From the NCBI GenBank assembly GCA_965223545.1, contig OZ245006.1, forward strand, positions 5,600,001 through 5,664,000: DNA of 64,000 nt. The letters are read 5' to 3'. The position numbers and the translations under genes were made by a program. Within the stretch, counting starts at the first letter, position 1, and every line of letters begins with the position of its first letter. Source of the stretch: Planctomycetota bacterium (GTDB lineage Bacteria; Planctomycetota; UBA1135; UBA2386). Of the stretch, positions 14,149-27,246 are shown piece after piece. The notes under the pieces are model-generated. The model was not told the DNA's origin, ran no database searches, and saw only the letters and a program-made list of their open reading frames with translations.

Positions 14149-15219
14149 ATGCGAGCAGCCAAGCGTTCGGCCGGCCGGCACCGGTCTCGGTGGCGCCGGC
14201 TGGCGCGCGGTGTGCTCGCCGCGGGGATCGGCTTGGCCCTGGCGGGTGTCGCCGGCGAGATCCTGGTGCGCGTGGTGGTGGGCGCTCCGCTCGCCGAGCG
14301 CGAGCCGCTGATGGAGATTCGGGCCAACCCGCACCGCGGCTGGGAGATGGTGCCCGGCCTCCACTACACCTACCAGCACCCCGTGCAGGTCAACGCGCTC
14401 GGGCTGCGCGGCCCAGAGCTGGAGACGAAGCGCGAAGGCGAGCTGCGCGTGCTGATGCTGGGCGACAGCCAGCTGTTCGGCCAGGGCGTGGCCAGCGACG
14501 AGACCGCGCCGCACTTCGTGCAGGAGCAGCTGCGTGCCGCGATGGGCGGGGCCCGTTCCGTCACCGTGATCAACGCCGGCCACCGCGCCTATGACACCCG
14601 GCAGGAGCTGGCGTTGTTGCGCGAGCTGGGGCCGCGCATCCAGCCGGACATCGTCATCGTTTGGTTCTACTGGAACGACCTGGACGAGCGCGACATCGAC
14701 GGCACCTACGCGCGGCTGACCGCTTCGGGCCCCATCGTGTTCGACGTCGGCGCCAAGATGGAGGGGTGGACGAGGCTGCGCTGGCATCTGGTGCAGATGG
14801 TGCGCCGCAGCGCTTTCGTGATGTACCTGTACGACCAGGTGCGCGCGCTGCGCGTGCCGGTGCAGCTGGATCCGGTCGGCCTGCAGCCGGCCTACGACCG
14901 TGCCGCCGGCTACGCGGAGAGTTTCGTCGAGCTCTCGCAGAGCATGGGGTTTCGCTTGTACTACGCGTTGTTGCCGGACGCGGCCAGCCTGGTCGGGCCA
15001 CACTTCACCGACGCGATGCTGGACTCCGTCAAGGCCGTGCTCGCGGCCAAGCGGATCGCCACCGTCGACTTGCGGCCACCGCTGCGCGCGCACGTCGAGG
15101 CTGGCTCGTCTCTGCCGGTGGTTCCCTACGACTTCCACTACGACGCGGTCGGTCACCGGGTGGCGGCGCAGGCCATGGTGGATCGGTTGTTGGCCGATGG
15201 GGTCGTGGCCGGCCAATGA
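14149..15219 (+). CDS. Membrane-anchored SGNH/GDSL-family protein (esterase or O-acyltransferase)
   Basis: Basic N-terminus plus one TM helix; GDSQLFG, INAG, YWND, DFH catalytic blocks. Confidence 0.85.
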   Translation: MRAAKRSAGRHRSRWRRLARGVLAAGIGLALAGVAGEILVRVVVGAPLAEREPLMEIRANPHRGWEMVPGLHYTYQHPVQVNALGLRGPELETKREGELRVLMLGDSQLFGQGVASDETAPHFVQEQLRAAMGGARSVTVINAGHRAYDTRQELALLRELGPRIQPDIVIVWFYWNDLDERDIDGTYARLTASGPIVFDVGAKMEGWTRLRWHLVQMVRRSAFVMYLYDQVRALRVPVQLDPVGLQPAYDRAAGYAESFVELSQSMGFRLYYALLPDAASLVGPHFTDAMLDSVKAVLAAKRIATVDLRPPLRAHVEAGSSLPVVPYDFHYDAVGHRVAAQAMVDRLLADGVVAGQ

Positions 15220-16367
15220 AGGTCGCGATCCTGTGCTCGGGGCTGGGGCACGTGCGCCGCGGTCACGAAGTGTTCATCCGCCAGGTCTTCGACCTGCTGC
15301 GCGACGAAGTCGATGTCACGCTGTTCAAGGGTGGCGGCCCGGCAGTGGAGCGCGAGGTCGTGGTGCCGCACGTGCCGCGCTACAGCAAAATGCTGGACGG
15401 CATGCACGTCGTGGCGGCGCCGAAGTGGCGCGCCGCGGTCGAGGAGGACACGCGGCTGGCGATCGAGATGGACACGTTCGCGCGCGGCGCGCTGCTGCCC
15501 CTGCTCGAAGGTGGCTATGACGTGATCCACTGCCTCGAGCGAGAGGTCGCCGATTGGCTGTACGGACAGCGGCTGTTGTTCGCCCAGGTGCCGCGCTTCG
15601 TCTTTTCCAACGGCGGGGCCTTGCCGGCGAAGCGGCTGCCGCGGTGCGACCTCGTGCAGGAGCACACGCGCTTCTCGATGCAGCGCGGTGCGCCGCAAAA
15701 AAGCGTGCTGCTGCCGCACGGGGTCGACCTGCACCGGTTCGATCCCGAGATCGACAGCGGGTTCCGCGCCGAGCTGGGGATCCCCGACGACGTCTTGCTG
15801 GTGCTCAGCGTCGGCACGATTTGCTACTGGCACAAGCGCATGGACCACCTCATCGAGGAGGTGGCGCAGGTCGAGGGTGCCCATCTGGTGGTCGCCGGCC
15901 AGCGATCGGTGGATGCGCCGGCGATCGAGGAGCTCGGCCGGCAGCGGCTGGGCGACCGAGTGCGGTTCGTCTCGCTCGGCCACGACGCCCTGCCGGCGGC
16001 CTACCGCGCCGCCGACGTGTTCGCGCTGGCCTCGCTGTTCGAGACCTTCGGCATCGTCTACATCGAGGCGATGGCGATGCGCTTGCCGGTGATCGCGACC
16101 GACCACGAGAACCAGCGGGCGATCATCGAGCACGGGGTGTTCGTCGACATGCGCCGCCGCGGCGCCCTGGCCGCGGCGCTGCGGGGCTTGGGGCCGCAGG
16201 AGCGTCGTGAGCTCGGCCGGTGCGGAAGGCAGCGCGTCGAGCAGCACTACGACCTTCGCCGGCAGAAGGCCGACTACATCGCGATGTACGAGCGCGCCGC
16301 CGCGATCCCGACCCAGGTGCCGCGGCATACGCTGAAGCGCCGGCTGCGCGGCTTGTTCCGTCGCTGA
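15216..16367 (+). CDS. Glycosyltransferase family 4
   Basis: HGVDLHRF, HKRMD, ETFGIVYIEAMA (EX7E); ATGA overlap with the SGNH gene. Confidence 0.93.
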   Translation: MKVAILCSGLGHVRRGHEVFIRQVFDLLRDEVDVTLFKGGGPAVEREVVVPHVPRYSKMLDGMHVVAAPKWRAAVEEDTRLAIEMDTFARGALLPLLEGGYDVIHCLEREVADWLYGQRLLFAQVPRFVFSNGGALPAKRLPRCDLVQEHTRFSMQRGAPQKSVLLPHGVDLHRFDPEIDSGFRAELGIPDDVLLVLSVGTICYWHKRMDHLIEEVAQVEGAHLVVAGQRSVDAPAIEELGRQRLGDRVRFVSLGHDALPAAYRAADVFALASLFETFGIVYIEAMAMRLPVIATDHENQRAIIEHGVFVDMRRRGALAAALRGLGPQERRELGRCGRQRVEQHYDLRRQKADYIAMYERAAAIPTQVPRHTLKRRLRGLFRR

Positions 16368-16457
16368 GTCGTTTCAAGGCTGGTGCCGGGTCTCGCGCGG
16401 GCCTCGTCCTGAGGTATGCTCCTCGGCCTCCCTCGCCTCTTCCCACCCCGCACTCCC

Positions 16458-16712
16458 ATGGACAAGAACGCGATCGTCCAAACCGTCCGTGACTACATTT
16501 CGCGCGAGTTCTTGCGCGACGAGCCCGATATCGTCTTGCAGGACGACACGCCGCTGATCACCGGTGGAGTGCTCGACTCGATCAGTACGATCAAGCTGGT
16601 GTCGTTTCTCGAGGAGCAGTTCAAGGTCGAGTTCGCCGCGCACGAGGTGTCCGCCGACTACCTCGACAGCTTGAGCACGATCGGCGACAGCGTCGCCGCC
16701 AAGCTGGGATGA
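16458..16712 (+). CDS. Peptidyl/acyl carrier protein (PltL/RedO-like)
   Basis: 84 aa, acidic; GVLDSIST phosphopantetheine site; VSFLEEQF. Confidence 0.92.
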   Translation: MDKNAIVQTVRDYISREFLRDEPDIVLQDDTPLITGGVLDSISTIKLVSFLEEQFKVEFAAHEVSADYLDSLSTIGDSVAAKLG

Positions 16713-18244
16713 CACAGCGGCTCGACGCGCTCTTGGCCGCGTCCGCCGTCGCGCGGCCGGACCATGTCGCGATCGAAGACCCCGCTACCGGCGACGCCGT
16801 CACCTACGCCGAGCTCGACGCCGCGGCGCAGCGCGTCGCCGAGACCCTGCGCCAGCGCGGCGTGGTCGCCGGCGACCGGGTCGGAGTGAGCGGCAAGTCG
16901 GTGCCCGTCGTGGCGGCGATCTTCGGCATTCTGCGCGCCGGAGCAGCCTACGTCCCGGTCGATGCCAACGCCCCCTTGCAGCGCGGCGCGACGATTCTGG
17001 CGGACTGTGGCGTCGCCTGTGCGTTCGTCGCGCCGGCCGCCGCCGCCGGGTTCGCCGAGTCGTTCGGCCACGACGGCGGCGCCGTCGAGTCGGTCGACGC
17101 GCTCGCCGGGCTCGGACCCGAGCTCGCCCTCGTTCCCGGCCCCGGTCAGCGAGTCGAAGACCCGTCGATGGCGGGCGAGTTGGCCTACATCCTGTACACC
17201 TCGGGGTCCACTGGGGTGCCGAAGGGTGTGGTGCACACCCATCGCAGCGCCCTGGCGTTCGTCGATTGGTGTTCGGAGGCGCTCCAACCGAGCCCGGACG
17301 ATCGCTTCTCGTCACACGCGCCGTTCCACTTCGACCTGTCGATCTTCGATCTCTACGTGTCCATCAAGCATGGCGGCACGTTGGTGCTGATCGGCGATGC
17401 CCTGGGCAAGCACCCGACCGGGCTGGCGTCGACGATCGCCGAGCGTCGAATCTCGGTGTGGTATTCGACGCCCTCGATCCTGCGTCTGCTCGTCGAGATG
17501 GGCAAGCTGGAGCGCCACCCGCACGCGCCGCGGTTGGTGTTGTTCGCCGGCGAGGTGTTTCCGATCAAGCACCTCCGCGCTCTGCAGGCGGCATGGTCGA
17601 GCCCGCGCTACTGCAATCTCTACGGGCCGACCGAGACCAACGTGTGCACTTGGTTCGACTTGCCGCCGCAGACTCCGGCCGACCGCGAGCAGCCATTCCC
17701 CATCGGGGTGGAGTGCTCTGGAGACGTCGCTCGGGTCGTCGACGAGGCCGGTGCCGACGTCGCCGACGGTGACGAGGGCGAGCTGTGGATCGCCGGCGCA
17801 TCGGTGATGCTGGGCTACTGGAACCGTGCCGAGCAAACCGCCGCGGTCTTCGTCGACGGTGACGACGGGCACCGCTGGTACCGGACCGGCGATCTGGTGC
17901 GACGCGATGCCAGCGGCGATCTAGTGTTCGTCGGCCGACGCGACCGGATGGTGAAGCGGCGCGGCTACCGCATCGAGCTCGGTGAGATCGAGGCGGCGCT
18001 GTATCGGCACGAGCGCGTGTCCGAGGCCGCTGCTCTGGCGGTCACCGACGCCGATGGCGCGGTCGGGATCCGCGCCTTTCTGTCGTGCGCCGATGGCGGC
18101 AGTGTGCCGGTGCTCGAGCTCAAGCAGTGGTGCGCGAGCCAACTTCCGCTCTACATGGTTCCCGATCGGTTCTTCTGCCGCGAGGTGCTACCGAAGACCT
18201 CGACCGACAAGATCGACTACCAGGCCCTGGCGCGGGAGCAGTGA
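16709..18244 (+). CDS. Stand-alone amino acid adenylation enzyme, predicted L-proline specific (PltF/RedM-like)
   Basis: YTSGSTGVPKG, HFDLSIF, NLYGPTETNVC, YRTGD, RIELGEIE, KID; specificity residues read by eye as DLFYLALVCK. Confidence 0.85.
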   Translation: MTQRLDALLAASAVARPDHVAIEDPATGDAVTYAELDAAAQRVAETLRQRGVVAGDRVGVSGKSVPVVAAIFGILRAGAAYVPVDANAPLQRGATILADCGVACAFVAPAAAAGFAESFGHDGGAVESVDALAGLGPELALVPGPGQRVEDPSMAGELAYILYTSGSTGVPKGVVHTHRSALAFVDWCSEALQPSPDDRFSSHAPFHFDLSIFDLYVSIKHGGTLVLIGDALGKHPTGLASTIAERRISVWYSTPSILRLLVEMGKLERHPHAPRLVLFAGEVFPIKHLRALQAAWSSPRYCNLYGPTETNVCTWFDLPPQTPADREQPFPIGVECSGDVARVVDEAGADVADGDEGELWIAGASVMLGYWNRAEQTAAVFVDGDDGHRWYRTGDLVRRDASGDLVFVGRRDRMVKRRGYRIELGEIEAALYRHERVSEAAALAVTDADGAVGIRAFLSCADGGSVPVLELKQWCASQLPLYMVPDRFFCREVLPKTSTDKIDYQALAREQ

Positions 18245-19398
18245 TGGACTTCAGCCTCGACGCAGACCAGAAGCTGCTGCGCGATGAGATCGTCGAGTTC
18301 TGTCGCAAGGAGCTGAACGCGGGTGTCGAGGAGCGCGACGCGGCGCAGGAGTTCCGGCGCGACTTGTGGCTCAAGTGTGGAGACATGGGGCTGACGGGGT
18401 TGCCCGTGCCGCGCGAGTACGGCGGCGTCGGCCTGGACCCGCTGAGCACGGCGATCGCGCTCGAGGCCTTTGGCTACGGCTGTCGGGACGGCGGGCTGGT
18501 GTTCTCGGTCTGTGCGCACCTCCTGGCTTGCGTGGTGCCGCTTTGGAAACACGGCAGCGAGGAGCTCAAGCAGCGCTACCTGCCGGCCCTGGCCAGTGGG
18601 CGGAGCATCGCGGTCAACGCGATGACCGAGCCCGGCAGTGGTTCGGATGCGTTCGCGATGCGGACAAAGGCCGTGCTCGACGGGGATCACTACCGCGTGC
18701 AGGGCACCAAGACCTTCAGCTCGAACGGTCCGGTTTCCGATCTGGCGGTGCTCTACGCCGTCACCGACCCGGACAAGGGCTACCACGGCGGCACATCGGC
18801 GTTCGTCGTCGAGCGCGGCGACGGCGGCTATCAGCCCGGTCAGAAGTTCGTCAAGATGGGGCTGCGCACGGCGCCGATCGGCGAGCTGGTGTTCGACGAC
18901 GCGCGCGTGCCGGCGGCCAACATGATCGGCGGAGCCGGGGCTGGCGGCGTGATCTTCCAGCAGTCGATGGAGTGGGAGCGGATCTGTCTGGTGGCAGCGC
19001 ACGTCGGCGCGATGCAGCGGTTGCTCGAGTCCGCCGTCGAGTACGCACGCACACGCACCGCCTACGGCCAACCGATCGGCAAGTTCCAAGCGGTGGCGCA
19101 CCGCATCGTCGACATGAAGGTGCGGTTGGAGGCCGCCCGGCTGATGGTCTACAAGGCGGCCGCCCGCCTGGACCAGCGCGGTGCGCGTGACATCGGGATG
19201 GATGCGTCGGTCACCAAGCTGTTCGTCAGCGAGGCGCTGGTCCAATCGGCGCTGGACGCCGTGCGCGTGCTCGGGGGCTACGGCTTCATGGCGGAGTACG
19301 AGGTCGAGCGCGTGTTGCGCGACTCGGTGGGCGGGCTGCTCTACTCGGGCACGTCCGACATCCAGCGCAACATCGTGGCCGGCTGGCTGGGTCTGTAG
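18244..19398 (+). CDS. Acyl-CoA dehydrogenase family, probable L-prolyl-[PCP] dehydrogenase (PltE/RedW-like)
   Basis: AHLLAC, TEPGSGSD, KMGLR, MEWER, FQAVAHRIVDM, GGYG, YSGTSDIQRNI; coupled to carrier and A-domain genes. Confidence 0.85.
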   Translation: MDFSLDADQKLLRDEIVEFCRKELNAGVEERDAAQEFRRDLWLKCGDMGLTGLPVPREYGGVGLDPLSTAIALEAFGYGCRDGGLVFSVCAHLLACVVPLWKHGSEELKQRYLPALASGRSIAVNAMTEPGSGSDAFAMRTKAVLDGDHYRVQGTKTFSSNGPVSDLAVLYAVTDPDKGYHGGTSAFVVERGDGGYQPGQKFVKMGLRTAPIGELVFDDARVPAANMIGGAGAGGVIFQQSMEWERICLVAAHVGAMQRLLESAVEYARTRTAYGQPIGKFQAVAHRIVDMKVRLEAARLMVYKAAARLDQRGARDIGMDASVTKLFVSEALVQSALDAVRVLGGYGFMAEYEVERVLRDSVGGLLYSGTSDIQRNIVAGWLGL

Positions 19399-19463: not shown

Positions 19464-20081
19464 ATGAAGCGAATCCTCACCCCGTTCTTCTTGGCCCCGC
19501 TGCTCTGGTCGGCGGTTGCCGATCAGCGAGTCGAAGCCGTCGAGCACTCGGCTCAGCCAACTCGCCTCGAGCCCGGTAGCTTCAAGGTCGACACCACACA
19601 CTCGGCCTGCATCTTCCGCGTCAAGCATGCCGGCGCGGCGTTCTTCTACGGGCGGTTCAACCACGTCGAGGGTGAGCTGGCGCTCGACGAGGACGACTTG
19701 GCCACCGCCGAGGTCACGATTCGCGTCAAGGCCGATAGTGTCGACACCGCGGTCGAGGGGCGCGACAAGCATGTGCGGAGCCCCGACTTCTTGGACGCGG
19801 CCCAGTTTCCATGGATCACGTTCAAGGGCGAGGAGTTCGAACGCGCCGGCGACAACGCGTTCACGGTGCGCGGCCAGCTGGAGTTGCGCGGCGTGAGCAA
19901 GCCGATCGAGATGCGCGTCGAGCACACCGGCACCGGTGAGTTCCGCGGCTCGACGCGGGTGGGCTACGAGACCACGTTCGCGATCAAGCGCAGCGAGTTC
20001 GGTTCGAACTACGGCATCGAAGCGGGCGCCCTCGGCGACGAGGTGCGGCTGACGTTCGGCTTGGAGATGATCAAGCAGTGA
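19464..20081 (+). CDS. YceI-family lipid/polyisoprenoid-binding protein
   Basis: Signal peptide; VDTTHS..IFRVKH, GRFN, SVDT...RDKHVRSPDFLD...FP.ITF, IKRSEFG. Confidence 0.95.
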   Translation: MKRILTPFFLAPLLWSAVADQRVEAVEHSAQPTRLEPGSFKVDTTHSACIFRVKHAGAAFFYGRFNHVEGELALDEDDLATAEVTIRVKADSVDTAVEGRDKHVRSPDFLDAAQFPWITFKGEEFERAGDNAFTVRGQLELRGVSKPIEMRVEHTGTGEFRGSTRVGYETTFAIKRSEFGSNYGIEAGALGDEVRLTFGLEMIKQ

Positions 20082-20923
20082 TCGCCGACGCATTCCTGCA
20101 ACAGCTGCTGCTCGGCCTGGCGCCGCCGGTCGCAGCCGCGGCGGGAGTGCTTGGGGTCGCGGTGGTCTGGGACCGCGGGCGCCGTGCCTGCGGGGACGGC
20201 GCGGCCGCGCTGGCGCTCGCCACGAGCTTGCTGGCGGGGTTGGTCGCCCTCGACGCTTGGCCTCGGTTGCCGCCGGCGAGTGGCACTCAAGCGGCGGTCG
20301 TGGCGGTCGTGGCGGCGTCGCTCGTCGCGGCCGCCGACGGTTGGCGGCGGTGGCCGCGCGGTGTGTGGGCGGTCGTAGTCGTTCTGCTCGCCGCCCTCGG
20401 CAGCGTGCTCGTCTTGATGCGCGTGCTGTCCCACTGGACCGTGCCGCGGCTCTCGGGGTACGTCGCAGCGGGCGTCGTGCTGACCGGCGCGGCGGCGTTG
20501 GCGTGGCGGGCCGCCGCGCGGCGGGCGCCGGTGTTGGTGGCCACCCACGTCGCGGCAGTCGCCGCCGGCAGCGGTGCGGTGCTGAGCTCGGGCAGCGCGC
20601 TGCTCGGTCAGCTCGCCGGCGCGCTGGCGGCCGGTGCCGCGGTCGTGGCGCTGGCGTCGCTGTGGCTGCCCGCGGCGCGACCGCGCCGCGGCGCGACCGT
20701 GGTGGCGGCGCTGGCCGTGGCGCTGCTAGCGGTGTGTGGCGTCGCGTTTGCCGACGTCGAGATCGCTGCCGTGGCCTGGCTGGGCGTGGCTCCGCTGGCT
20801 GCGCTGGCCGTGCGCCCGCTGCGCGCGCCGGTCGTTCGATGGCTGGTGGTGCTCGGTGTCACGGGTGGTTTTCTGTCGATGGCGGTCGCGACCGCGCCGC
20901 AGAACCCCTATGCGGGATACTGA
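20078..20923 (+). CDS. Hypothetical integral membrane protein
   Basis: About 9-10 hydrophobic segments; GTGA overlap with yceI; ends NPYAGY. Confidence 0.7.
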   Translation: MIADAFLQQLLLGLAPPVAAAAGVLGVAVVWDRGRRACGDGAAALALATSLLAGLVALDAWPRLPPASGTQAAVVAVVAASLVAAADGWRRWPRGVWAVVVVLLAALGSVLVLMRVLSHWTVPRLSGYVAAGVVLTGAAALAWRAAARRAPVLVATHVAAVAAGSGAVLSSGSALLGQLAGALAAGAAVVALASLWLPAARPRRGATVVAALAVALLAVCGVAFADVEIAAVAWLGVAPLAALAVRPLRAPVVRWLVVLGVTGGFLSMAVATAPQNPYAGY

Positions 20924-25539: not shown

Positions 25540-27246
25540 CTAGCGGGAAGATCGAGCCGGACTCCGTACTTCCGCGACGGCCCAGTCGGCGGTGCGGAGT
25601 AGCGCGAACGCCTCTTCGCGGATGGCGATGTCGGCCGGTGGCGTCGCGGGGCCGTGGTTGCGGAAGTGGCGTATCAAGCGCCGTGCGGTGCCGCGGGGAT
25701 CCAGCCCGAGCTTTCTGCCGATGGCTTGTAGGCCGGTCGCCAAACGCCCCAGCACCGGGTGGCGCCGCCGGAGCGCGCGGCCGTGCAGCTGGTCCAGGCC
25801 CCAGGCGATGTGGTTGTGCAGGGCGGCGTCGGACATGCCGGAGAGATTGATCACGCGGTCGCTGATGTCGCGGTCGGCGAGCTCCATCAACCAAGCTTCC
25901 TCGTCTTCGATCAGGCCCCGGTCGCGGGCGATGTCGTACAGCTCGGTGCCCGGGTACGGGCAGGGAATCGAGAAGCCCGCGTGCTCGAAGCCGAGCGCAT
26001 CGAGGGCCTCGACGTTGGCGCGCATCGATGCGCGGCCGTCGGTCTCGTAGCCGAACAGGAGCTGCGCCGACGAAATCTCGAATCCGGCCTGCCGCGCCAG
26101 TCGGAGGGCGCGGACGATTTGCTCCGCCTTCTGTCCCTTGCGCATCGCCTTCAGCGTGGGGTCGTAGAAGGATTCGATGCCGATGCCGATGCTGCAGAAG
26201 CCGGCGCGGCGCATGACGTCGAGCAGTGGCTCGTCGATGAGGTTGGCCCGCAGGCCATTGATCGTGCCGAACACGTAGCGCCGGTCCTCGGCGATGACCC
26301 GTTCGCAGAACGCGCGCACCCAGTCCTTGTCGATGTTGAAGATCTCGTCGCCGAATACGAAGTGCGCCGTGGAGTAGCGCTCGGCCAAGAGATCGATGTG
26401 GGCGAGTGTGTGCTCGACCGACGTCGGTACGACCTTGCGGCCGAAGTTGCGGTAGCAGAAGTTGCAGGCAAACGGGCAGCCCCGCTTGGCGAACAGCATC
26501 ACCGGTCGACGGGCTCGCTCGGGGTCGATGCCGGCCTCGGCGACGCGCTCCGCCACTCGTCCCACCAGTGGGTACTTGTGGGCCGCGGTGTTCGCGATGT
26601 AGGGCTCGAGATCGACCAAGTGGTATGCCGGGTACGGCAGGTCCTCGATGTTGGCCATGCGCGGCCGGCCGGCGGTCTCGATGACGGTGGCGGAGTCGTC
26701 CAAGTAGCAGATGCCGGGGATCGCCGACAAGTCGGAGCCTTCGAGCAGGCGCTGGATCAACTCGACGATCACCGGTTCGCCTTCACCCACGCAGGCCACG
26801 TCGATACCAGTGCGCTCCAAGATCGTGCGCGGTGAAGCCGAACACGCGCTGCCGCCGCCGATCACCGGCACGTCCGGGTAAGCGCGCTTGAGCGCCAGCG
26901 ACAGCAGCTTCATGTAGTAGTAGACCGTCGTCATGCCGCCGATGCCGATGACGTCGAAGCGGCGTGTGCCGATCTCGGCCATCACCTCGTCGAAGGGCAG
27001 TCGGAGCAGATTGAGGTCGAGGATCTCGACCGTTGCGCCTGCGTGCTCGAGAACGGCCGCGATCGACATCAGGCCGAACGGCGGATACAGCGGCGGGGAC
27101 GAGACGCGCACCGGTGGGTAGACCAGCAGCACGCGACGGTCCTGCAGGGGTGCGCCGCCGCCGACCTCGAAGTCGGCGGTCTGCAGCTGCATCAGGTGGG
27201 CGGCGCGCGCGTCGGGGCGGGGGGGAGCTTCAGAGCTGCTTGCCAT
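25540..27246 (-). CDS. Cobalamin-binding radical SAM protein (class B methyltransferase-like)
   Basis: PPFGLMSIAAVL, VIGGG, CVGEGE B12-domain motifs; KRGCPFACNFC; GIGIES; PYPGTELY; start uncertain (27192-27285). Confidence 0.93.
   Translation of the reverse strand: MASSSEAPPRPDARAAHLMQLQTADFEVGGGAPLQDRRVLLVYPPVRVSSPPLYPPFGLMSIAAVLEHAGATVEILDLNLLRLPFDEVMAEIGTRRFDVIGIGGMTTVYYYMKLLSLALKRAYPDVPVIGGGSACSASPRTILERTGIDVACVGEGEPVIVELIQRLLEGSDLSAIPGICYLDDSATVIETAGRPRMANIEDLPYPAYHLVDLEPYIANTAAHKYPLVGRVAERVAEAGIDPERARRPVMLFAKRGCPFACNFCYRNFGRKVVPTSVEHTLAHIDLLAERYSTAHFVFGDEIFNIDKDWVRAFCERVIAEDRRYVFGTINGLRANLIDEPLLDVMRRAGFCSIGIGIESFYDPTLKAMRKGQKAEQIVRALRLARQAGFEISSAQLLFGYETDGRASMRANVEALDALGFEHAGFSIPCPYPGTELYDIARDRGLIEDEEAWLMELADRDISDRVINLSGMSDAALHNHIAWGLDQLHGRALRRRHPVLGRLATGLQAIGRKLGLDPRGTARRLIRHFRNHGPATPPADIAIREEAFALLRTADWAVAEVRSPARSSR

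Follow-up and report, generated by a model that had tools for sequence, protein, structure and literature searches.

A proline-type carrier cassette in a planctomycete and a candidate MBOAT-SGNH acyltransferase encoded in trans

Organization of the locus

A 64,000-nucleotide stretch of the Planctomycetota bacterium contig OZ245006.1 (assembly GCA_965223545.1, forward-strand positions 5,600,001 to 5,664,000), hereafter the window, was analyzed for a set of three overlapping genes. They encode a peptidyl carrier protein, a stand-alone adenylation (A) enzyme and a prolyl-carrier dehydrogenase, together referred to as the trio. A gene for a fusion of MBOAT and SGNH domains, located far from the window on the same contig, was included in the analysis. 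Below, G000 is this genome and C1 its contig, other G numbers are comparison genomes, and L numbers are related loci. The features are as follows (window coordinates unless preceded by C1).

14149-15219, + strand: membrane-anchored SGNH protein (Pfam), probably a neighbor and not a dedicated part
15216-16367, + strand: GT4 glycosyltransferase (Pfam), probably also a neighbor and not a dedicated part
16415-16420, + strand: TATGCT, likely -10 element for the trio (genome-wide strand-biased upstream enrichment)
16458-16712, + strand: PltL/PigG-like peptidyl carrier protein, 84 aa, Ser41 (PP-binding match; PltL and PigG in the PDB)
16709-18244, + strand: stand-alone adenylation enzyme, predicted L-proline:carrier ligase, 511 aa, code DLFYLALVCK (PDB 6o6e)
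18244-19398, + strand: prolyl-carrier dehydrogenase of the PigA/RedW/AnaB/Bmp3 group, 384 aa, Glu245 (NCBIfam, PDB)
C1:1,861,664-1,864,198: MBOAT-SGNH fusion, ~850 aa, 3.75 Mb from the trio, sole orthologue in the genome

The five window genes had been described in an earlier note made from the sequence alone, and gene calls bore out their coordinates and overlaps. The SGNH and GT4 genes overlap by ATGA and 90 bp separate GT4 from the carrier gene; within the trio, carrier and A-domain genes overlap by ATGA, and A-domain and dehydrogenase genes by TGATG. The GT4-carrier junction is covered without differences by contigs from two samples, one of which may be the source sample, and the arrangement is therefore no assembly error.

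The TATGCT hexamer, which the same note had proposed as a -10-like site giving the trio its own promoter, is correctly placed 43 nt before the carrier ATG. Genome-wide it ranks second among strand-biased upstream hexamers, with 46 sense and 12 antisense occurrences and one in 500 kb of coding DNA. Because of this strand bias upstream of genes, a separate trio promoter at 16415 is likely, although a generic sigma-70 scan missed the site.

The trio is predicted to load and oxidize proline

PDB searches matched the carrier to PltL and PigG. Its Ser41, the expected phosphopantetheine attachment site, is invariant in 29 of 29 sequences, and a phosphopantetheinyl transferase is encoded in the genome. 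The best PDB structures for the binding region of the A domain are L-proline:carrier ligases 6o6e (E 3e-54) and 7thn (E 1e-32), which we take to be PltF and PigI, respectively. Alignment reproduced the code DLFYLALVCK read previously. It differs at one position from that of 6o6e, DLLYLALVC(K), nine of ten residues being the same, and agrees with PigI at eight of ten; in both reference proteins the terminal Lys lies outside the stretch displayed. The specificity prediction that had been suggested as a check on a proline-activating trio thus returned a proline-type pocket. The code, or a near variant, is found in 29 of the 30 A domains from related loci that contain an MBOAT (see below), the exception being a distant A domain of 33% identity. 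Models of D-alanine-specific DltA scored 264-271 bits on the A domain, against cut-offs of 476-560.

The top four PDB matches of the dehydrogenase are all prolyl-carrier oxidases: 4irn (350 bits), 5zw0 (316), 6cxt (314) and 6af6 (313). Its Glu245 occupies the position of the Glu conserved in 4irn, 5zw0 and 6cxt, and the motifs MEWER and YSGTSDIQR were confirmed from residues 242 and 367. The best NCBIfam models are PigA (445 bits, cut-off 500) and RedW (418 bits, cut-off 650). A proline-type stand-alone A enzyme, a free carrier with a phosphopantetheine serine and a dehydrogenase with the catalytic Glu are thus all present. Proline loading and oxidation by a PltL/PltF/PltE-like trio is a well supported prediction, given the PltF-like code, the prolyl-carrier oxidase matches, the PltL/PigG-like carrier and the genomic phosphopantetheinyl transferase.

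The sequence is compatible with either end point of the oxidation, pyrrole or pyrroline. AnaB stops at the pyrroline after a two-electron oxidation and feeds a polyketide synthase (PKS) in the anatoxin-a route. Were the window enzyme to act likewise, the exported group would be pyrroline-carboxyl (dehydroprolyl). The rank of 4irn, which is AnaB, above 5zw0 and 6cxt and the PigA and RedW scores under their cut-offs would fit such a two-electron oxidation. Against it, halogenase-family genes are present in 8 of 30 fusion-linked loci, and in described pathways carrier halogenation comes after pyrrole formation. A cyclic imine ester would also seem a poor surface decoration. RedW, PltE and Bmp3 carry out the four-electron oxidation to pyrrole, according to PMC10849742. 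We regard a pyrroline product as distinctly improbable and refer below to pyrrole-2-carboxylate.

A DltB-like MBOAT-SGNH protein is encoded elsewhere in the genome

The earlier note had pointed to the missing MBOAT. None is present in the window, as stated, and one exists in trans as the MBOAT-SGNH fusion. Likewise, its statement that PKS and halogenase are absent holds for the window but fails for the genome, where nine ketosynthase (KS) domains and, 3.75 Mb off, a halogenase-like gene were found. On the same strand upstream of the fusion lie a TauE-family gene and this flavin halogenase-like gene, the latter directly before the fusion.

Pfam, NCBIfam and PDB searches (phmmer and hmmsearch) did not see the MBOAT half of the fusion and detected at most the SGNH half, which may be why the fusion was overlooked. 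An AlphaFold model calculated from 117 sequences had a pLDDT of 90 and a pTM of 0.83. A fold search with the model returned DltB first (6bug chain C and 8jem), followed by HHAT, PORCN and LPCAT3, and the C-terminal part matched SGNH enzymes, mostly hydrolases such as TesA. The result agrees with the JGI name "DltB (MBOAT superfamily)" carried by many homologues. Residues D290, W292, N296, H339, G530-Y531-Y532-E533, S618, D813 and H815 do not vary in any of the 117 sequences. The predicted structure thus shows a DltB-like MBOAT with a conserved His (His339), fused to an extracytoplasmic-type SGNH domain with a Ser/Asp/His triad (S618/D813/H815).

In the Dlt system the acyl group passes through a Tyr of DltX. 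No C-terminal FXYXXF is present here, the MBOAT running directly into the SGNH domain; a separate DltX-like microprotein was not searched for. The invariant GYYE segment (530-533) lies on the SGNH side of the final long helices, inside the sole low-confidence segment of the model (527-548), and this linker might be a mobile acyl shuttle.

Genomic linkage between fusion and trio

Related trios were collected as 53 non-redundant loci (A domain at least 48% or dehydrogenase at least 57% identical); six duplicates, and three regions lacking a close trio, were excluded. An MBOAT/SGNH acyltransferase was found in 30 of the 53, usually as one fused chain of ~850 aa that repeatedly adjoins the carrier gene. 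The proportion was 24 of 46 for loci obtained with trio queries alone, 6 of 7 for those from a phylum search, and 24 of 34 for loci of at least 10 kb. The transferase is split into two genes in L010, L045, L125, L127, L157, L176 and L177.

In the closest relative found, L106, TauE, fusion, carrier, A-domain and dehydrogenase genes follow one another in one run. Its trio proteins are 71% (A domain), 77% (dehydrogenase) and 63% (carrier) identical to those of the window, and its TauE and fusion proteins are 59% and 62-64% identical to those encoded in trans here. An open reading frame directly downstream of this intact unit (L106:14777-16888) was called with both halogenase-family and ABC ATPase domains, as a fusion or through a frameshift; it comes after ABC substrate-binding and permease genes.

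Among 91 family genomes, the dehydrogenase was detected in three, all with the fusion, which itself occurs in four. In a 400-genome phylum sample, fusion and dehydrogenase were each found in 11 genomes and occurred together in eight, the genes adjoining in seven of those eight; the eight come from four families and are therefore not independent. Lists of the best homologues of the A domain and of the fusion (119 each) share seven large-contig matches at similar ranks and one short one. Identities of A domains and MBOAT proteins to the copies of this genome co-vary (Spearman 0.69 over 26 loci, which are kin and not independent).

A quick tree of dehydrogenases was built without duplicates L105 and L113, fragments below 290 aa and sequences below 37% identity, three paralogues being retained as outgroup. 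The window dehydrogenase grouped with L106 and G009 (support 99) within a 29-row clade (support 96). The fusion is in the locus in 14 rows of this clade and elsewhere in the genome in three (this genome, G009 and G060); for a fourth member, L017, it is also found elsewhere in the genome. G009 has kept all the parts on three separate contigs, one with the A domain and dehydrogenase, the others with the carrier (81%) and the fusion (79%). The novelty of this locus appears to lie in the splitting of the unit: two related planctomycetes have retained every part, but in trans.

The same data bear on whether PKS or nonribosomal peptide synthetase (NRPS) lines of the genome receive a pyrrolyl starter in trans from the trio, as in pyoluteorin or prodigiosin synthesis. 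The genome does offer candidate recipients, with nine modular KS domains (several belong to KS-first proteins) and 14 matches to condensation domains. Yet KS or NRPS genes occur in none of the 53 close trio loci, so that the consistent PKS/NRPS pairing which would have spoken against the earlier note is not seen, and its preference for a Dlt-like envelope route over a PKS/NRPS product agrees with the MBOAT/SGNH count. The 29-row clade contains no KS-linked member, KS-linked trios falling outside it in the quick tree. KS domains of the genome are at most 42% identical to those of trio-linked PKS loci, and a hand-off in trans, finding no support in KS similarity, was rejected; we hold this reading to be very improbable.

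Many NRPS-PKS hybrid and KS-first PKS genes of G000 are not clustered but strewn singly among unrelated genes, for example at C1:292,405-306,628, 1,096,168-1,111,643, 3,046,551-3,083,231, 3,467,683-3,477,462 and 4,785,193-4,789,806. On account of this placement, the lineage may routinely run pathways in trans.

The SGNH and GT4 genes beside the trio are probably mere neighbors

The earlier note had taken the adjacent SGNH and GT4 proteins as partners of the trio, and this part was not supported. Searches of 90 other family genomes, including the trio-bearing G009 and G060, gave no match for GT4 at E≤1e-40 and none for the window SGNH at E≤1e-55. In the 53 trio loci the best scores were just 46 bits (SGNH) and 50 bits (GT4), i.e. 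generic. The synteny search proposed for the SGNH/GT link to the trio thus revealed no conservation and found MBOAT/SGNH instead. The best-homologue list of GT4 (119) shares one short (2,625-base) contig with that of the A domain and none with that of the fusion.

An arrangement in which GT4 synthesizes the acceptor and the window SGNH delivers the pyrrole acyl group to it, unaided or in a further relay step following the fusion, would make sense of the single strand, the overlap of the two genes and the 90-bp distance to the carrier gene across a real junction. The window SGNH has an intact triad (Ser107 and a D-x-H from residue 328) and a membrane anchor, a single N-terminal transmembrane helix at residues 22-40, and is 31% similar to the SGNH domain of the fusion. 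A two-SGNH relay has a precedent in AlgJ/AlgX of alginate synthesis. Neither gene, however, has an orthologue in the family genomes or the trio loci, and the promoter of the trio is probably separate. The genome encodes at least 13 paralogues of the window SGNH, which brings the subfamily to at least 14 copies, and a periplasmic SGNH without an MBOAT cannot reach a cytoplasmic carrier, as established for Dlt. We give this arrangement little credence; the two genes were ruled out as conserved partners and are likely neighbors rather than dedicated parts. One close paralogue of the window SGNH (46-48%) lies in an unrelated context at L096:9530-10545 (C1:587,535-588,545).

Proposed pathway

Our preferred reading, which we consider rather probable, is that the trio makes pyrrole-2-carboxyl-S-carrier and hands the acyl group to the MBOAT-SGNH fusion encoded in trans for transfer to an extracytoplasmic glycan. 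The phosphopantetheinyl transferase would prime carrier Ser41, the A domain would load L-proline and the flavin dehydrogenase would oxidize the prolyl- to the pyrrolyl-S-carrier. Halogenation of the carrier-bound pyrrole by the halogenase-like protein could follow, a step about which we are somewhat doubtful. The MBOAT domain (His339) would then take the acyl group off the carrier and place it on a GYYE Tyr acting as an internal DltX stand-in. Finally, the SGNH domain (Ser618/Asp813/His815) would accept the group and esterify a surface polysaccharide or glycolipid.

The halogenase-like protein contains GxGxxG and WxWxIP, as in the PltA/Bmp2/CndH group, and matches 3e1t, CmlS and PltA; it also scores with the related non-halogenating flavoproteins QhpG and LodB. 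One of its Lys residues falls, in the alignment, on a presumably catalytic Lys of 3e1t and 3i3l. Proteins encoded downstream of the trios of L014 and L126 share 60% and 48% identity with the halogenase-like protein, the L014 gene coming directly after that for the dehydrogenase. The 8 fusion-linked loci with halogenase-family genes belong mostly to other lineages, and two of them pair one with a methyltransferase. No close halogenase orthologue was found in the 400 phylum genomes or in G009, G055, G060 and G031, and the halogenase is therefore an optional accessory.

Glycan-synthesis genes (Wzx, Wzy, GT2/GT4, deacetylase, amidotransferase, sugar epimerase) are present in 10 of the 30 fusion-linked loci, eight being recognized by BLAST label and two, L121 and L127, through Pfam. 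Their presence points to a surface polysaccharide as the acceptor. The same enzymes and fusion could serve another end, the SGNH domain acylating a lipid or protein or releasing free (halo)pyrrole-2-carboxylic acid outside the cytoplasm. The other 20 loci are without glycan genes, the fold matches of the SGNH domain are mostly hydrolases such as TesA, and TauE and ABC transporter genes flank the L106 unit, all in keeping with a non-glycan fate. It is opposed by the 10 loci set among Wzx, Wzy, glycosyltransferase and deacetylase genes and by the precedent that bacterial MBOAT/SGNH pairs acylate envelope polymers (PMC12148441). Such an outcome seems unlikely to us, and a glycan acceptor is retained.

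Several observations weigh against the proposed pathway. The dehydrogenase matches AnaB better than PigA and Bmp3 in the PDB, and both its NCBIfam scores fall under the cut-off. GYYE is unlike the FXYXXF shuttle motif described in PMC12148441, and is not C-terminal. Close halogenase orthologues are missing from the related genomes, two thirds of the fusion-linked loci are without glycan genes, and neither half of the system here has glycan genes beside it apart from the unconserved GT4. The link between trio and fusion in this genome is solely in trans, and the fusion is absent from 23 of the 53 trio loci within the DNA examined, many of these loci being short. A search elsewhere in eight named close-trio genomes gave no fusion match in six, for which completeness was not reported, and the fusion occurs without the dehydrogenase in G055, G263, G464 and G474. 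Because of these six and these four genomes, fusion-trio pairing, judged by gene content, is common but not obligatory. In some loci the fusion adjoins a different A domain (that of L179 has the code DYYPSTMRCK); together with the occurrence of the fusion without the dehydrogenase, this means that the fusion family accepts other donors.

Members of the fusion family without the dehydrogenase are found beside other AMP ligases or carriers in L103, L179, L180, L181 and L182; that of L179 lies within Wzy, Wzx and GT2 genes together with a pyridoxal phosphate-dependent decarboxylase gene. Such neighborhoods suggest a wider family of carrier-fed envelope acylations.

A more general reading is tentative, and we think it less likely than not to hold in full: a Dlt-like pathway that is widespread in diderms (Planctomycetota, Pseudomonadota, Rhodothermota, Calditrichota and others) would put pyrrole-2-carboxylate on surface glycans through a single-chain MBOAT-SGNH protein with an internal Tyr shuttle, with halogenase or methyltransferase tailoring in some lineages. 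In the present genome it would be encoded by two loci 3.75 Mb apart and would yield a halopyrrole-acylated envelope.

Relation to known systems

The proposed system combines Dlt-type logic, the chemistry of pyrrole natural products and a fused transferase. With Dlt (DltA, DltC, DltB, DltX and DltD; D-alanylation of teichoic acids) it shares a stand-alone A enzyme, a carrier, a DltB-fold MBOAT and an SGNH protein. Unlike Dlt, it has a proline-type and not a D-Ala code, an extra dehydrogenase and an optional halogenase, MBOAT and SGNH for the most part joined in a single chain, an internal invariant GYYE instead of a C-terminal FXYXXF shuttle, and diderm hosts. Carrier, proline-type A enzyme, prolyl-carrier dehydrogenase and a related halogenase recur in PltL/F/E, PigG/I/A, RedO/M/W and Bmp1/4/3 (halogenases PltA and Bmp2). 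In contrast to these, the close clade is without a PKS, NRPS or KAS III partner, and the partner is a membrane acyltransferase, with which the pyrrole would exit the cytoplasm as an acyl group. AnaC/AnaD/AnaB, which provide the anatoxin-a starter, likewise load and oxidize proline on a carrier, and 4irn is the best dehydrogenase match; they feed a PKS, whereas none is linked to the trio.

In clorobiocin synthesis, CloN4/5/3 and CloN1/2/7 acylate a sugar hydroxyl from a pyrrolyl-carrier, in the cytoplasm and on a small antibiotic, with a KAS III-like protein and an alpha/beta-hydrolase-type transferase. The donor and the kind of acceptor would be alike here, but the acyl group is predicted to cross the membrane by way of an MBOAT-SGNH relay. 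Distant trios accompanied by alpha/beta-hydrolases or by KAS III (L033, L039, L122, L130 and L132, KAS III solely in L122) fall outside the clade. Eight distant trios without MBOAT (L029, L033, L034, L035, L039, L115, L130 and L132) lie by genes for alpha/beta-hydrolases, halogenases, sulfotransferases and glycosyltransferases. Distant MBOAT-less trios perhaps carry out a cytoplasmic, CloN7-like pyrrole acylation of glycans.

PatA/PatB, AlgI/AlgJ/AlgX and OatA also relay an acyl group across the membrane through a Tyr and an SGNH Ser, and OatA is likewise fused. They differ in using acetyl-CoA and not a carrier-bound heteroaryl thioester, and the membrane domain of OatA is AT3. As described in PMC12148441, Dlt is an MBOAT/SGNH system that uses a carrier, with the Tyr in FXYXXF of DltX; other MBOAT/SGNH systems have no carrier, an acyl-CoA donor and FXYXXF at the MBOAT C-terminus; and OatA is an AT3-SGNH fusion using an internal Tyr. 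The present fusion fits none of these schemes exactly.

A literature search, with subscription journals mostly outside its coverage, retrieved neither a prolyl or pyrrolyl carrier trio joined to an MBOAT nor a pyrrole-2-carboxyl group on an envelope glycan. If the proposal is correct, the system would join Dlt as a second MBOAT/SGNH envelope acylation that depends on a carrier, with a heteroaromatic, possibly halogenated natural-product unit as cargo in place of D-alanine or acetate. Such surface chemistry would extend across many diderm phyla, bring antibiotic-type chemistry to the envelope and be a possible source of polymer-bound organohalogen. The single-chain MBOAT-SGNH protein would be a subject for the tyrosine-shuttle model, and many orphan pyrrole trios labeled as antibiotic clusters in genome mining would in fact serve to modify the envelope. 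The cassette is present in a cultured bacterium, Hyphomonas johnsonii MHS-2 (L022), where it is embedded in a GT/Wzx cluster, and the idea is therefore directly testable.

Other genes of the window and genome

A YceI gene and an overlapping gene for a 281-aa membrane protein without Pfam match (19464-20923, + strand) begin 65 bp after the dehydrogenase gene; the pair stands beside none of the related trios examined. Six kb downstream lies a B12-dependent radical SAM gene (25540-27192, - strand), one of eight paralogues. It was considered as a CloN6-like pyrrole methylase and rejected, being just 23-27% identical to the radical SAM proteins near the trios of relatives, and nothing connected it with the trio.

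Two further loci of G000 contain carriers. At C1:2,832,497-2,838,310, two Pfam-detectable MBOAT genes and a small acyl carrier protein gene, at C1:2,838,140, lie within 6 kb, possibly a second carrier-dependent envelope acylation locus. At L097:7240-10641 (C1:2,942,239 onward), a second carrier, 32% identical to that of the window, is accompanied by an AMP ligase, a hexapeptide acyltransferase and a GT2 glycosyltransferase.

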